Of a DNA stretch of 64,000 nt, positions 14,000 to 64,000 are shown piece by piece. Under the pieces are notes generated by a model, which made no database searches, was not told the origin of the DNA, and saw only the letters and a list, made by a program, of their open reading frames with translations. The DNA is from Anaerolineales bacterium (GTDB taxonomy: Bacteria; Chloroflexota; Anaerolineae; Anaerolineales; Villigracilaceae). Position 1 is the first letter of the stretch. The number at the start of each line of letters is the position of its first letter. The stretch lies in the NCBI GenBank assembly GCA_016789305.1, contig JAEURJ010000023.1:732084-796083 (forward strand). Direction: 5' to 3'. Both the position numbers and the translations under genes were made by a program.

Positions 14000-14079
14000 G
14001 ATGTTGACAAATTCCGTTGCAACTTTTTCGGCTTCATCCCTGTATCTCCTGTAACCTACAAAACGAAAGGAACTTTCCC

Positions 14080-14598
14080 ATGGCCGATATCTCCGCCATC
14101 TTCTTCATCCTGTTAATCATAGGCATCGCCTTTCCTGCCATGCTCACTGCGTGGTGGTTGTTGTTTCCATCCGTTGTATCGCGCGCGCAATCCCGCGTGG
14201 ATAAGACTCCCTGGGGCACGTTTGGGATGGGACTCATCATCCTGATCGCTGTGACGATTCCCATCGTCATCCTGCTCGCGCTTCCCTTCGGACCTGCGAA
14301 ATTTGCCGGCTGGATTTTGCTTGCGGCTGCGCTGGCAGTTTCTTCCATCGGCTCCGCGGGGATTGCCGCACATTTGGGTGCAAGACTTTCACGTCAAAGC
14401 ACCTTCTCTGCCTTGAGCGGATTTGTGCGCGGCTCTGTTCTGCTTGAGCTTGCTGCGTTCTTCCCGGTGCTGGGTTGGTTCTTCATCTGGCCGCTCACGA
14501 TCATCATGGCTTTCGGTGCCACCGGCTTCGCGTTCCTCAATTGGATGCCGCGCGAAAAGACTGTCCGCGTACTTGAGCCTATTTCAACTCAAGCTTAA
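14080..14598 (+). CDS. hypothetical membrane protein (4 TM)
   Basis: Start MADIS after GAAAGG; hydrophobic; lies upstream of DUF1800. Confidence 0.75.
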   Translation: MADISAIFFILLIIGIAFPAMLTAWWLLFPSVVSRAQSRVDKTPWGTFGMGLIILIAVTIPIVILLALPFGPAKFAGWILLAAALAVSSIGSAGIAAHLGARLSRQSTFSALSGFVRGSVLLELAAFFPVLGWFFIWPLTIIMAFGATGFAFLNWMPREKTVRVLEPISTQA

Positions 14599-14614
14599 TG
14601 AATCAAAGAGTATC

Positions 14615-14668
14615 TTTCTTCTTTCATCTTTGTAATTCATCCTTCAACTTTCATCCTTCATCCTTCCC
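14615..14668. repeat. TTCATCC heptamer tandem array
   Basis: TTTCTTC/TTTCATC/TTTGTAA/TTCATCC/TTCAACT/TTCATCC/TTCATCC, then TTCCC and the DUF1800 ATG. Confidence 0.8.
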
Positions 14669-16150
14669 ATGACTCTCTCCAGACGTGATTTCCTCAAACT
14701 CAGTGCTCTTGTGACGGCCAGCGCGGCACTTTCATCCTGTGCTCCAGTCTATCGCAAACTCGCCGGTGACTTGCCTGCCGTCCCATGGACTGCGCTCAGC
14801 GCAAACGATTTCCTCGCATTGAATCGACTCACTTTCGGTCCACGAGTGGATGAACGAGCCCGTTTCGTCGACATCGGTTTGAAGGCCTGGATCGAGGAGC
14901 AGCTTGATTTCGAATCGATCAACGATCTTGCATGCGAGATTCAACTCAGCCCATTCAAATCCCTTAAACTGGATGCGAATGAACTCGAAGGAATCAGCAA
15001 CCAGCTCTTCGATGGCTATGACCGCGATACGATTCCCAATGAATTGCGCCAGTCCACGTTGATCCGTCAGTTATACAGCAAGCGCCAGTTGTACGAGATC
15101 ATGGTCGAATTTTGGAGTGACCACTTCAACATCTACATCGAAAAGGGAAATGGTTTTTATCTGAAAACTGTCGATGACCGCGAAGTGATCCGCAAACATG
15201 CGCTCGGTTCATTTCGTGATCTTGTTTGGGCATCCGCACATTCGCCGGCGATGATGATCTATCTCGATAATCAGGCCAATGAAAAAAGTCATCCCAATGA
15301 AAATTATGCGCGCGAACTCATGGAACTGCACACGCTTGGGGTTGATGGCGGATATTCTCAAAAAGATGTAATGGAACTTGCGCGCTGCCTCACCGGCTGG
15401 AACGTCAAGGAACATTTCTGGCTCGGCGATTTTGTTTTCAAGGAAGACCTGCACGATACCGGCGTAAAAAATGTTTTGGGCTTAACGATCCAGCCGTCGG
15501 GTATTCAAGAAGCGGAGCAGGTTATTGAAATGTTGGCGGTTCATCCCAGCACTGCAAAGTTTATTTCCACCAAGCTCGCACGCCGTTTCATTGCCGATGA
15601 ACCGCCGCAAGAACTCATCGAAAAAGCCGCGCAAACTTTTCTCGATACAAAAGGCGATATCAAATCCGTTCTGCGAGTCATTCTGCTCGATGGGCTTGCA
15701 CTCGCACAACCCAAATATAAACGCCCTGCCAATTACGTGCTTTCTTCGCTTCGCATGCTCAATGCTGAAACCGATGCCGTTGCGATTAACGAACATCTGT
15801 TGCGCATGGGCCAATCTTATTTCAACTGGCCCACGCCCGATGGCTACCCCGACCGCAGCGAATCATGGCAGGGCAATCTTATGCCGCGCTGGCAATTCGC
15901 GTTTGAATTGATTCGAAACGAGATCAAAGATACAAAACACAATTTGAAAAATTTGTTGGATGTCTCTTCGACCGGTATTTTACAAGACGATGTGGATGCA
16001 TTGACATCTTTATTATTGGGCGCACCGTTGGAACGCATCGGCCGCGACAGGTTGATTGATTCCGTCCGAGCGGCAGGCGCCACCGAAGAAGAGACTCTGC
16101 AAATCGTCGCCGGTGGATTGATCGCCTCCCCCGCGTTTCAATGGAGATGA
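14669..16150 (+). CDS. DUF1800 family protein with Tat signal
   Basis: SRRDFLK Tat motif, FWSDHFN, NENYARELMELHTLG, HPSTAKFISTKL, SPAFQ. Confidence 0.92.
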   Translation: MTLSRRDFLKLSALVTASAALSSCAPVYRKLAGDLPAVPWTALSANDFLALNRLTFGPRVDERARFVDIGLKAWIEEQLDFESINDLACEIQLSPFKSLKLDANELEGISNQLFDGYDRDTIPNELRQSTLIRQLYSKRQLYEIMVEFWSDHFNIYIEKGNGFYLKTVDDREVIRKHALGSFRDLVWASAHSPAMMIYLDNQANEKSHPNENYARELMELHTLGVDGGYSQKDVMELARCLTGWNVKEHFWLGDFVFKEDLHDTGVKNVLGLTIQPSGIQEAEQVIEMLAVHPSTAKFISTKLARRFIADEPPQELIEKAAQTFLDTKGDIKSVLRVILLDGLALAQPKYKRPANYVLSSLRMLNAETDAVAINEHLLRMGQSYFNWPTPDGYPDRSESWQGNLMPRWQFAFELIRNEIKDTKHNLKNLLDVSSTGILQDDVDALTSLLLGAPLERIGRDRLIDSVRAAGATEEETLQIVAGGLIASPAFQWR

Positions 16151-61220: not shown

Positions 61221-61386
61221 AGCAGTGAAAAGTAAATATAAGATTCAATGATGTGGTCTCTCTCTACGAGGACTTCGCGATATGCCTCGTGAAGAACACG
61301 CAAGGCTGCTCAACCACCGTCAACAATTTTCTTTCATCTTTCTTCTTTTTCTCCCCTCCGTAGCTAAAATCTGCTACACTCCGCAC

Positions 61387-63009
61387 ATGGAAACCCTCTC
61401 CTCCGCGCTTGACCCCAACTCCGATGAATTCAAAGCCAATGCAGAACATAACCGTGCGCTCACGGCTGAACTTAGAAATCGTCTTGCGCTTGTGCGACAG
61501 GGCGGCGGTGAGAAATATCGTCAACGCCATGAGGAGCAGGGGAAATTATTTGTGCGCGAACGCATCGAACGATTGCTCGATCCCGGTGCGCCGTTCCTCG
61601 AACTCTCTGCGCTTGCGGCGGGCGATATGTATAAAGGAGAGGCGCCAAGTGCAGGTATTGTCACCGGCATCGGGCGTGTTTCGAATCGTGAAGTGATGAT
61701 CGTGGCCAACGATGCCACGGTCAAGGGTGGCTCGTATTTTTCGATGACCGTCAAGAAACATTTGCGCGCGCAACAGATCGCGGAAGAAAATCATCTGCCC
61801 TGTCTGTATCTCGTCGATTCAGGCGGGGCCTTTTTGCCGCTGCAGGATGAGGTCTTTCCCGACGCACATCACTTCGGCCGCATCTTCTACAATCAGGCGC
61901 GCATGTCTGCGAAGCGCATTCCGCAGATCGCGGCGGTGATGGGCAATTGCACGGCGGGCGGCGCGTACGTCCCGGCGATGAGCGATGAAGCGATCATTGT
62001 CAAAGGCGCGGGCACGATCTTCTTGGGTGGTCCGCCGTTAGTAAAAGCCGCGACCGGTGAAGATGTCACTGCGGAAGAATTGGGCGGCGCGGATGTGCAC
62101 ACACGAAAATCGGGTGTTGCGGATCATTTTGCGGAGGACGACGATCATGCGATCGAAATCCTGCGGGGAATCGTTGAAACGCTGCAACGTTCACACGTGA
62201 ACACGCATCTTTCCACGCTGGAAGTTGCTCCGCCGGAAGAACCTTTATACGCCGCTGACGAATTGTACGGCGTCCTGCCGCGTACGTTTAAAGAATCGTA
62301 TGACGTCCACGAGATCATCGCGCGCATCGTGGATGGCAGCAAGTTCCGCGAGTTCAAGGCGCGCTATGGCACAACGATCGTTTGTGGTTTTGCACGTATT
62401 CATGGATACCCCGTGGGTATCATCGCGAATAACGGTGTTTTATTTAGCGAGTCTGCACTGAAAGCGACTCACTTTATTGAGTTGTGTGATCAACGCGGGA
62501 TTCCGCTTTTATTTTTACAGAACATCACCGGCTTCATGGTTGGCAAGGAGTATGAAACTGGCGGCATCGCCAAGGACGGCGCGAAGATGGTCCATGCGGT
62601 GGCGACGACGCGTGTTCCAAAGTTAACATTGGTCATCGGCGGCTCGTTTGGTGCCGGTAATTACGCGATGGCGGGCCGTGCGTACGGTTCACGCTTCCTA
62701 TGGATGTGGCCGAATGCGCGCATCTCGGTGATGGGCGGAGAACAGGCCGCGAATGTGCTCTTAACCATCAAGCAGGATCAACTCACTCGCGAAGGTAAAC
62801 CAGCTCTCAGTGCGAAAGAAGCGGAAGATTTCAAGCGTCCACTATTGGAAAAATATGAAACCGAAGGCAGTCCCTATCATTCCAGTGCAAGATTATGGGA
62901 CGACGGTGTCATCGCTCCGGATGAGACACGTCAGGTGTTGGGGCTGGCTTTGTCGATTGTGTTGAATTCGCCGAAGGAAGAGGGTGGGTTTGGGGTGTTT
63001 AGGATGTAA
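61387..63009 (+). CDS. mccB: methylcrotonyl-CoA carboxylase beta (carboxyltransferase) subunit
   Basis: [55 protein letters not shown]. Start placed at METLS. Confidence 0.9.
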
Positions 63010-63036
63010 GGTATGGAAAGTAGTTAGTGGTGAGTG
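63009..63036. repeat. left heptamer array flanking four-helix-bundle gene
   Basis: (AGGTATG)/GAAAGTA/GTTAGTG/GTGAGTG. Confidence 0.6.
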
Positions 63037-63046
63037 GAGGATTGGC

Positions 63047-63523
63047 GTGAAGTATTTGGAATGGCAAGCTGGTGTTTCGGATGAAATCAAGGGCGATTCA
63101 CTTTGGAGGCTTGAAGTATATCGTCTTGCGTTATTTGCATCTGATATTGCATGGCAGGATGCGTTTGTTTTGAATAAGACGCCACTGACTCGCTCTTTGG
63201 CAGACCAACTCTATCGCGCAGTTTGTTCAATTTCTGCTAATATTGCCGAAGGCTATTCCCGTTCGACAGGAAAAGACCGCGCACGATTTCTGGAGTACTC
63301 CCTTGGTTCTGCTCGTGAAGCACGCGATTGGTATTTCAACTCCCATCACACTTTAAAAGAAGAAGTTGTAAATCATCGAATTAATTTATTGACTCAAATT
63401 ATCAAGATGTTAAGTATTCTTACACCCAACCAGCGCCAAAAAGGAATTCGAGAAGAGCAAACCGAGTACATCACTTTACTATCATCAGATTTCAATTTCG
63501 ATTCAGAGATTCCATTCTCTTAA
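63047..63523 (+). CDS. four helix bundle protein (23S-IVP/bAvd-like family)
   Basis: LEVYRLA, DQLYRAVCSISANIAEGYSR, FLEYSLGSAREARDW. GTG start after GGAGG. Confidence 0.9.
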   Translation: MKYLEWQAGVSDEIKGDSLWRLEVYRLALFASDIAWQDAFVLNKTPLTRSLADQLYRAVCSISANIAEGYSRSTGKDRARFLEYSLGSAREARDWYFNSHHTLKEEVVNHRINLLTQIIKMLSILTPNQRQKGIREEQTEYITLLSSDFNFDSEIPFS

Positions 63524-63525
63524 CT

Positions 63526-63546
63526 CACTTTCTACTTTCTACTTAC
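63526..63546. repeat. right (inverted) heptamer array flanking four-helix-bundle gene
   Basis: CACTTTC/TACTTTC/TACTTAC, the reverse complement of GAAAGTG/GAAAGTA/GTAAGTA. Confidence 0.7.
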
Positions 63547-63557
63547 TAAAAGGTCCC

Positions 63558-64000
63558 ATGTCCCACGAAACCTCCACCCCCCACCATTTTTTCGCCCGCC
63601 TCGCCGGCAACTGGCGTGGCACATCAAAGCTCTGGCTTGAACCCGGCAAACTGGCCGATGAATCCCCTGTTGTTGGGACGATCCAGCTTTTGCTTGAAGG
63701 GCGCTTTGCGCTTTATCTGTACCAGGGCTCCATTGAAGGTGAACCGCAGCACGGCATGTTCACCTTCGGCTATAACACCACGCTCGAACAGTTCGAAGCC
63801 AGCTGGGTCGATAGTTTTCACAATAATACGGGCATCATGTTTTGCACGGGTCATGAGATCGAAAATGGATTTTCCGTCACCGGCAGTTTTCCCGACCCCA
63901 GCGGCGGACCCGATTGGAGCTGGCGCACCGAGGTGGAACTGCTTGATGATGAGTTGACCATCACTGCTTATAACATCGCTCCCGAGGGCGAAGAAACCAA
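63558..64000 (+). CDS. DUF1579-family protein (runs off window end)
   Basis: Manual translation MSHETSTPHHFFARLAGNWRGTSKLWLEPG...SWVDSFHNNTGIMFC...GPDWSWRT; no stop before 64000. Confidence 0.8.
   Translation, partial: MSHETSTPHHFFARLAGNWRGTSKLWLEPGKLADESPVVGTIQLLLEGRFALYLYQGSIEGEPQHGMFTFGYNTTLEQFEASWVDSFHNNTGIMFCTGHEIENGFSVTGSFPDPSGGPDWSWRTEVELLDDELTITAYNIAPEGEET

Follow-up and report, generated by a model that had tools for sequence, protein, structure and literature searches.

A four-helix-bundle gene framed by inverted heptamer arrays at an operon junction: a candidate intervening-sequence-type cassette outside rRNA

An insert between mccB and a DUF1579 gene

Near the end of a 64,000-nucleotide stretch of the genome of an Anaerolineales bacterium (contig JAEURJ010000023.1, assembly GCA_016789305.1; hereafter the window), a small gene of the four-helix-bundle family PF05635 separates two protein-coding genes of the same direction and is itself framed by two short arrays of heptamers in inverted orientation. 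We refer to the arrays as arms, and to the gene with both arms and its Shine-Dalgarno (SD) sequence as the cassette; all of these features are given on the forward strand. The upstream host gene (61387..63009, stop codon TAA at 63007-63009) encodes an acyl-CoA carboxylase carboxyltransferase (PF01039, 511.8 bits) for which the name mccB is plausible at the subfamily level. Its start is ambiguous between 61282 and 61387, the latter being the probable one, and its orthologues in relatives are 72-95% identical. The downstream host gene (63558..64000, continuing beyond the end of the window) belongs to DUF1579 (PF07617, 99.2 bits), starts with ATG at 63558 and is preceded by a weak SD sequence, AAAGG, at 63549-63553. 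In relatives, its orthologues sit either after a cassette or directly after mccB, and comparison of a filled with an empty junction (L005 and L014, respectively) places the cassette at 63010..63557.

The 5' arm, three purine-rich heptamers (GAAAGTA GTTAGTG GTGAGTG, 63016..63036), begins 7 nt past the mccB stop codon. The first G of a good SD sequence, GGAGG (63036..63040), as read directly from the sequence, is shared with the last unit of this arm at 63036, and the GTG start codon of the four-helix-bundle gene follows 6 nt further on (63047..63523, 158 codons, TAA at 63521-63523). Three nucleotides past that TAA begins the 3' arm, three pyrimidine-rich heptamers (CACTTTC TACTTTC TACTTAC, 63526..63546) that are the reverse complement of the consensus GWRAGTR. 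A search of the window for three consecutive GWRAGTR units with at most two mismatches returned exactly two matches, one on the forward strand at 63016-63036 and one on the reverse strand at 63526-63546; 100 shuffled sequences returned none, and the expected number is 0.00. A repeat search at the locus recovers the arms as inverted repeats of 14 nt (86%) and 19 nt (74%), their complementarity being imperfect. In the 559-nt cassette RNA, the minimum free energy and centroid folds are both closed by an arm-arm helix, and the total folding energy is normal for an mRNA. Joined by a tetraloop, the arms alone reach -21.6 kcal/mol, compared with -15.9 +/- 2.9 kcal/mol for shuffled sequences (z -1.98).

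The encoded protein scores above the cut-offs of both PF05635 (60.2 bits, cut-off 33.8) and TIGR02436 (67.4 bits, cut-off 24) and carries an N-terminal extension and a C-terminal tail. The family motif RxxxSxxxNxxE (PMC3936711) is present as RAVCSISANIAE at residues 57-68, and the R, both S, the N and the E of this segment are invariant in nine orthologues. An AlphaFold2 (AF2) model contains four long helices (residues 18-42, 46-72, 76-98 and 105-125) at a predicted local distance difference test score (pLDDT) of only 69; its best Foldseek matches in turn, 2GSC and 2RLD, are weak (E ~0.1, template modelling score (TM) 0.3-0.4). A phmmer search against the PDB likewise finds 2GSC, at E 0.0026. 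The protein of that entry, Xcc0516, is known to form a homopentameric ring. Among orthologues that also follow mccB, dN/dS is 0.04-0.17, with dS saturated, and the protein is under purifying selection.

Within the cassette, no second open reading frame (ORF) was found, nor was a transposase or recombinase found in or beside it. Promoter-like and terminator-like sites were sought in the cassette flanks at the locus with none detected, and no Rfam family, rRNA included, occurs in the entire 64-kb window. The initial annotation of the window had proposed that a four-helix-bundle gene, bracketed by heptamer arrays whose units are mutual reverse complements, is inserted between mccB and the DUF1579 gene, that the transcript could fold with the ORF as the loop, and that neither rRNA nor a reverse transcriptase is present at the site; the arrays, the insertion and both absences were borne out, and the predicted folds are in keeping with such a loop.

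The lack of a reverse transcriptase at the site bears on one possible origin of the gene. The PF05635 family is related to Avd of diversity-generating retroelements (DGRs), and this kinship is what would favour a DGR remnant, that is, an Avd-like gene that has lost its reverse transcriptase. Unlike Avd, however, the gene has no reverse transcriptase next to it. The only one in the genome (PF00078) is on contig C23, away from all PF05635 genes, and no long direct repeats, hence no pair of template and variable repeats, occur in 62900-63650. Moreover, the armed design described below is found at hundreds of operon junctions without a reverse transcriptase. The distant lone reverse transcriptase and the missing template and variable repeats effectively refute a DGR remnant, to which we attach a negligible probability.

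The gene-plus-arms design in paralogues and homologues

The genome contains four PF05635 genes. At each of them, short repeats lie between the preceding gene and the SD sequence and their reverse complement follows directly after the stop codon, the units being different in every case (GGTTCAGAG-type, TCTGAGG, TAGTT-type and GWRAGTR). The same design was found in a sample of 80 homologous loci from many phyla, including Chloroflexota, Planctomycetota, Bacteroidota, Acidobacteriota, Nitrospirota, Desulfobacterota, the candidate phyla radiation (CPR), cyanobacteria and others. Tandem Repeats Finder called arrays within 120 nt of the gene upstream at 65 loci, downstream at 67 and on both sides at 54. 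The period was 7, 14 or 21 in 109 of the 132 flank arrays, and most arrays had 3-5 units, with a mode of 4. Complementarity of the arms was measured as a DNA-level alignment score between the upstream flank and the reverse complement of the downstream flank. The median score was 38 for a locus's own pair, compared with 17 for swapped partners and 18 for the direct orientation, and the own pair exceeded the 95th percentile of swapped pairs at 50 of 79 loci. This score supersedes an earlier swapped-arm control by RNAduplex energies, which was confounded by shared composition and heptamer types and in which the own pair was the best of 21 at only 24 of 71 loci.

The design is also polar. The 5' arm is the more purine-rich one at 48 of 60 loci (p 3e-6), and among strongly polar loci this holds for 33 with none of the opposite orientation. 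The upstream neighbour is co-directional at 62 of 75 loci, and the median distance from its stop codon to the start of the cassette gene, 56 nt, leaves room for the length of an arm only. Across cassettes the heptamers can be set in register on a common core, n-A-G-n-a-g-t (A in 138 and G in 117 of 144), with an information content of 4.40 bits compared with 3.17 +/- 0.10 for shuffled heptamers; the units of the present locus, written as AAGTAGT, TAGTGGT and GAGTGGA, fit this core, as does the Coxiella unit CAGATGA. Arm similarity follows protein similarity across phyla (Spearman 0.38, Mantel p 0.001), and because the best arm matches link loci of different phyla, gene and arms travel together. 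Taken together, the gene-plus-arms design is common to the four paralogues and most homologues across phyla, and arms and protein are inherited, and exchanged, jointly.

The stem at the present locus only modestly beats its shuffled counterparts, which would be compatible with low-complexity repeats arisen by chance or with a common terminator or attenuator that has nothing to do with the gene. Neither would account for a pattern expected 0.00 times that occurs exactly twice, inverted and at the borders of the gene, or for a design that recurs in all paralogues and across phyla. Together with the empty prediction of promoter-like and terminator-like sites, these counts refute chance, terminator and promoter alike, and we give such explanations practically no weight.

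Homologues are also present on conjugative plasmids; a typical paralogue, searched in phage records, gave no match. Two plasmid copies in cultured cyanobacteria carry heptamer arms and lie at a cas10|cmr3 junction in Picosynechococcus sp. PCC 7003 (L183) and at a cas6|cas4 junction. In the latter arrangement on plasmid pANA02 of Anabaena sp. 90 (L184), the 5' arm has grown to ~45 units (GGTGACA/GGGAACA) and the 3' arm is nearly lost; the array resembles the short tandemly repeated repetitive (STRR) sequences, here joined to a four-helix-bundle gene. A 23S_rRNA_IVP gene wedged among cas genes, for example cmr2/cas10 and cmr3, has been reported before (PMC3936711). That study takes the gene as linked to CRISPR-Cas function and leaves flanking repeats unmentioned, whereas the present copy resides in a metabolic operon.

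Gain, loss and exchange at cistron junctions

Within the genus, genomes hold between 0 and 21 PF05635 cassettes, and individual junctions are found in several states. The mccB|DUF1579 junction is filled in G018, G008 and G022 and empty in G020, where the two genes are 7 nt apart (TTCACAC); in G003, an element resembling a miniature inverted-repeat transposable element (MITE) takes the place of the cassette. The synteny comparison thus finds the gene pair both with and without the insert, and with inverted flanks at all paralogues as well, the insertion proposed in the initial annotation stands. Three further sites belong to the other paralogues. At the first, G016 and G003 have no insert. At the second, G010 carries the complete cassette, G012 a gene remnant truncated at its 5' end, G004 a hairpin made of arms alone and G020 nothing. 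At the third, G020 carries the cassette, whereas G018, G013 and G004 have no insert and the stop codon there overlaps the start codon; G010, G012 and G019 hold ORF-less heptamer hairpins of related units, and G022 and G008 a MITE. No target-site duplication is visible between filled and empty junctions, a comparison limited by flanks that are only 70-90% identical.

The MITE-like hairpins (L007 in G003, L150 in G022, L151 in G008, and L018/L025) lie at the mccB|DUF1579 and TPR|sbcD-like junctions. As MITEs and cassettes are found at identical junctions, these cistron junctions are recurrent landing sites for several kinds of small element. At the second paralogue (C22:87128-87540), the host ORF extends through the 5' arm, which adds a C-terminal tail, KGNEVSEGSEVYDVDEGGY, and the host TAA overlaps the cassette ATG (TAATG); in relatives with an empty site the host protein is ~17 residues shorter. 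A perfect palindrome resembling a repetitive extragenic palindrome (REP), AAGTGACAGTCACCTTAAAGGTGACTGTCACTT, is present in five copies in this genome, including one at C22:88126 (L002:2454-2488), and in up to ~35 copies in congeners.

A search of 401 genomes of the phylum revealed this cassette type after mccB in five genera of the family. Every after-mccB orthologue has near-perfect arm arrays, of the type RAAGTRG, GAAAGAR or GAGTGAN according to clade, and both sides always switch type together, a concerted evolution of the two arms. Between the present genome and G069, mccB is 93.8% identical and the cassette protein only 61.7%, with another arm type in G069, whereas for G095 the corresponding values are 90.8% and 86.5%. 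This discordance between cassette and flank suggests that the cassette has been exchanged as one unit at a fixed site. The after-mccB copy is an old resident. In G059 (L169/L178, C1:949038-949483) its orthologue is broken by a stop codon and has a 5' arm of nine units, and in G022 (L015) the orthologue may contain a frameshift in a T8 run; these copies are decaying or, in the case of G022, possibly an assembly error.

The presence and absence, replacement and decay of cassettes at fixed junctions raise the question of mobility at the DNA level, as in a MITE or transposon whose enzyme is encoded elsewhere, the arrays being terminal repeats or a single-stranded DNA hairpin and the gene mere cargo. 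The range of 0-21 copies per genome in one genus, the homologues on conjugative plasmids, and ORF-less hairpins of one heptamer family at several sites, some in frame inside genes (see below), would agree with such an element, as would a symmetric spectrum of arm mismatches that accords with maintenance of the arms as DNA. Against this, the cassette has neither transposase nor recombinase in or beside it and leaves no visible target-site duplication, within the limits of divergence just given. Unlike MITEs and transposons with terminal inverted repeats, cassettes also lack near-identical copies. Identity among the four paralogues and the copies in G068, G071 and G056 ranges over 27-66%, and their arms differ; in genomes with 15-21 copies the median protein identity is 27-31% and the maximum 66%, each copy has its own arms, and no signs of recent transposition were found. 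Such divergence argues against a recent burst. The fixed polarity of gene and arms and the purifying selection on the protein speak against mere cargo. We therefore consider a cassette moved as cargo by a foreign enzyme improbable. The initial annotation had also suggested a mobile cassette: gain and loss on an evolutionary scale agree with it, whereas residence after mccB in five genera, the missing transposase and the lack of a visible target duplication do not.

Pairing, binding and the relation to rRNA intervening sequences

Our preferred explanation is that the insert is a four-helix-bundle cassette of the intervening-sequence (IVS) type that resides outside rRNA. We put its probability at roughly 0.5. 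The architecture and the evolutionary behaviour of the cassette are well supported; the RNase III step, proposed by analogy with the rRNA copies, is more tentative and falls somewhat short of an even chance. A promoter-less PF05635 gene with its own SD sequence lies between inverted arrays of one heptamer family, the purine-rich arm upstream, exactly at a cistron junction, where transcription of the host operon would read through it. Within the polycistronic transcript, the arms would form a helix of ~20-30 bp with the cassette as its loop, and RNase III may cut this helix as it has been experimentally shown to do for family copies in 23S rRNA; the genome encodes a canonical RNase III (251 bits). 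Cleavage would render the insert tolerable and free a discrete four-helix-bundle mRNA. The likeness of the arms would be kept up by homogenisation of the DNA, through slippage within arrays, template switching or conversion between inverted arrays, and not by selection on the RNA base pair by base pair.

Several observations weigh against pairing followed by excision, and hence against the mRNA-level intervening sequence put forward in the initial annotation. Among 376 arm mismatches at 61 loci, G.U (87) is no more frequent than A.C (86), with 203 others, so that no preference for G.U is apparent. Nor do the unit variants of the 3' arm follow one another in an order that mirrors the 5' arm (difference from shuffles 0.07, p 0.84, at low power). 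As both tests of RNA pairing are negative, what is maintained is one heptamer family in inverted orientation and not specific base pairs; this fits homogenisation at the DNA level and also leaves room for units that bind a protein. The stem at the present locus is modest (z -1.98), and excision has no evident use where a cassette lies between convergent genes or where the upstream ORF traverses the 5' arm. Finally, the GWRAGTR family also occurs elsewhere in the genome and the genus as solo arrays and ORF-less hairpins, and the arms may therefore serve a purpose other than mutual pairing.

In the genome, GWRAGTR arrays number 6, compared with 0.2 for permuted heptamers. Four lie beyond the cassette arms (G000 C12:100740, C16:42122 on the reverse strand, C22:219061 and C18:140137): three directly follow a stop codon and precede a terminator-like hairpin, and one is antisense within a 444-aa ORF. 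Counts per genome in the genus range from 0 to 94, with a median of 12 where a clade-A protein is present and 5 where it is not (p 0.004, uncorrected for phylogeny); 7 of 39 genomes without any P4-like gene nevertheless have at least 20. Inverted heptamer hairpins without an ORF, of the GTCGAAG/CTTCGAC and GAGGAAA/TCTTTCC families, are found at C12:37650-37700, C22:66138-66209 and 66897-66964, C12:556438-556489 and C3:583094-583153. They lie within long ORFs, contain no stop codon and are read in frame. In one case the hairpin, translated as the peptide KSKVEGQSLPSTFDLRPS, fuses glyQ with glyS; two are in a CydD/C-like ABC transporter gene, another in PrmA just ahead of the S-adenosylmethionine (SAM) motif, and the last in the gene of a GT39-like membrane protein. 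The commonest ORF-less families here, GTCGAAG and GAAAGAR, have no cognate gene in this genome, and no dispersed copies exist of the arms of the other three paralogues.

In the window, a further pyrimidine-rich heptamer-like array of the TCTTTCA type lies at 61330-61348, ~40 nt ahead of the probable mccB start at 61387, and long heptamer arrays with a TGGTC core are found immediately 5' of mccB in G019 and G008. Eight pyrimidine-rich heptamers (ATCTTTC/TTCATCC type) at 14612-14666, between an ORF at 14017-14598 and an ATG at 14669, resemble a 3' arm and form a solo array with no partner.

Alternatively, the arms would be arrays of binding sites, in RNA or DNA, for the encoded four-helix-bundle pentamer, with about one 7-nt unit of AG core per protomer. 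They might act in autoregulation, as an operator, or be the repeat partner in a protein-plus-repeat system, and the complementarity of the arms would merely reflect their inverted orientation. The phase-fixed core common to different cassettes, the array lengths of mostly 3-5 units with a mode of 4, the particular heptamer of each paralogue and the arm types that follow protein clades would all fit, as would the lack of both a G.U excess and a mirrored unit order, the over-representation of GWRAGTR arrays (6 compared with 0.2, three of them after stop codons and ahead of terminator-like hairpins) and the higher counts in clade-A carriers, with the reservation on phylogeny given above. Other counts run the opposite way: seven genomes without a P4-like gene are rich in arrays, and the commonest hairpin families lack a cognate gene here. 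Moreover, a protein that recognised the sequence of the purine-rich strand would fail to recognise the 3' arm in RNA, which is its complement. We regard binding-site arrays as possible, though rather doubtful. Excision, protein binding and DNA mobility are not mutually exclusive.

The excision of an IVS-type cassette, our preferred account, draws on the closest known counterpart. The IVS of the Coxiella burnetii 23S rRNA contains an S23p ORF and is closed by a terminal stem of ~28 bp that RNase III cuts; two to three GACAGAT heptamers stand just before the S23p start codon, in an element of ~430-550 nt (PMC4990558). This anatomy matches that of the cassette, as the initial annotation had anticipated in likening the insert to 23S rRNA IVSs. 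In Coxiella burnetii and Leptospira, as here, a PF05635 ORF lies within terminal inverted repeats, and in Coxiella tandem heptamers precede the ORF, with GACAGAT fitting the n-A-G core. There are differences as well. The present cassette lies between two protein-coding cistrons and not in an rRNA helix, and excision by RNase III, known for the Coxiella IVS, is a prediction for the cassette. The cassette gene has a good SD sequence, placed on the arm's loop side, and evolves under purifying selection, whereas the Coxiella ORF is reported to be decaying and is probably untranslated.

Heptamer arrays without a gene, in inverted pairs, have been described as GGGAATC in Xanthomonas, as GGGGAYT/STRR in Nostoc and as MTYCTGA hairpins in Geobacter metallireducens (PMC4692102, PMC2700814). 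They share with the arms a period of 7, a preference for ~4 units, a position between co-directional genes and convergent pairs able to form hairpins, and the ORF-less hairpins of this genome are of the same kind. In those papers the repeats are read as G-quadruplex formers or regulator sites, with no tie to four-helix-bundle genes; here, unlike the gene-less repeats, the arrays flank a gene on both sides and change along with it. A further, partial likeness is to REPs and their paired form (REPIN) with REP-associated tyrosine transposases (RAYTs), in which a single gene is also flanked by an inverted short repeat that is dispersed elsewhere, partly as hairpin doublets. The cassette differs in having no HUH/tyrosine transposase fold, in its tandem heptamer arrays in place of one palindrome and in dispersed arrays that persist in genomes without the gene. 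A strict match to REPIN/RAYT is not supported, given that three paralogues have arms without dispersed copies and that no gene in this genome is cognate to the most frequent ORF-less hairpins.

In full-text literature searches, we found no paper that joins heptamer arrays with PF05635 genes outside rRNA, and the widespread occurrence of the rRNA IVS design at operon junctions is apparently undescribed. A broader proposal, which we hold to be unlikely as a whole, would make PF05635 pentamers sequence readers of n-A-G-N4 arrays, and the gene with its inverted arms the autonomous member of a class of selfish elements that spans the bacteria and has no canonical transposase. Its gene-less relatives or descendants may then be the ORF-less hairpins, those in frame included, the solo arrays ahead of terminators, and the heptamer repeats known from Xanthomonas, Geobacter and cyanobacteria, and the 23S rRNA intervening sequences may be those copies whose insertion site was an rRNA hairpin loop.

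For thirty years, the ORF-bearing intervening sequences of rRNA have been regarded as a curiosity, and so have the heptamer repeats of Xanthomonas, Geobacter and cyanobacteria. As far as the literature searched shows, IVS genes and heptamer repeats are connected only within the Coxiella 23S rRNA. The present locus and its relatives suggest one design for both, a small conserved gene between inverted heptamer arrays that colonises the cistron junctions of ordinary operons in many phyla, metabolic and cas operons included. If this is correct, PF05635 genes found in operons should not be taken as functionally tied to their neighbours, and the rRNA intervening sequence would be a special case, one habitat of a wider gene cassette. 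It would then be possible to test what the unknown proteins of this very large family do, as cultured carriers exist, Bacteroides thetaiotaomicron being a further candidate, and two questions can be put to them: whether RNase III cuts the arms, and whether the protein binds the heptamers.

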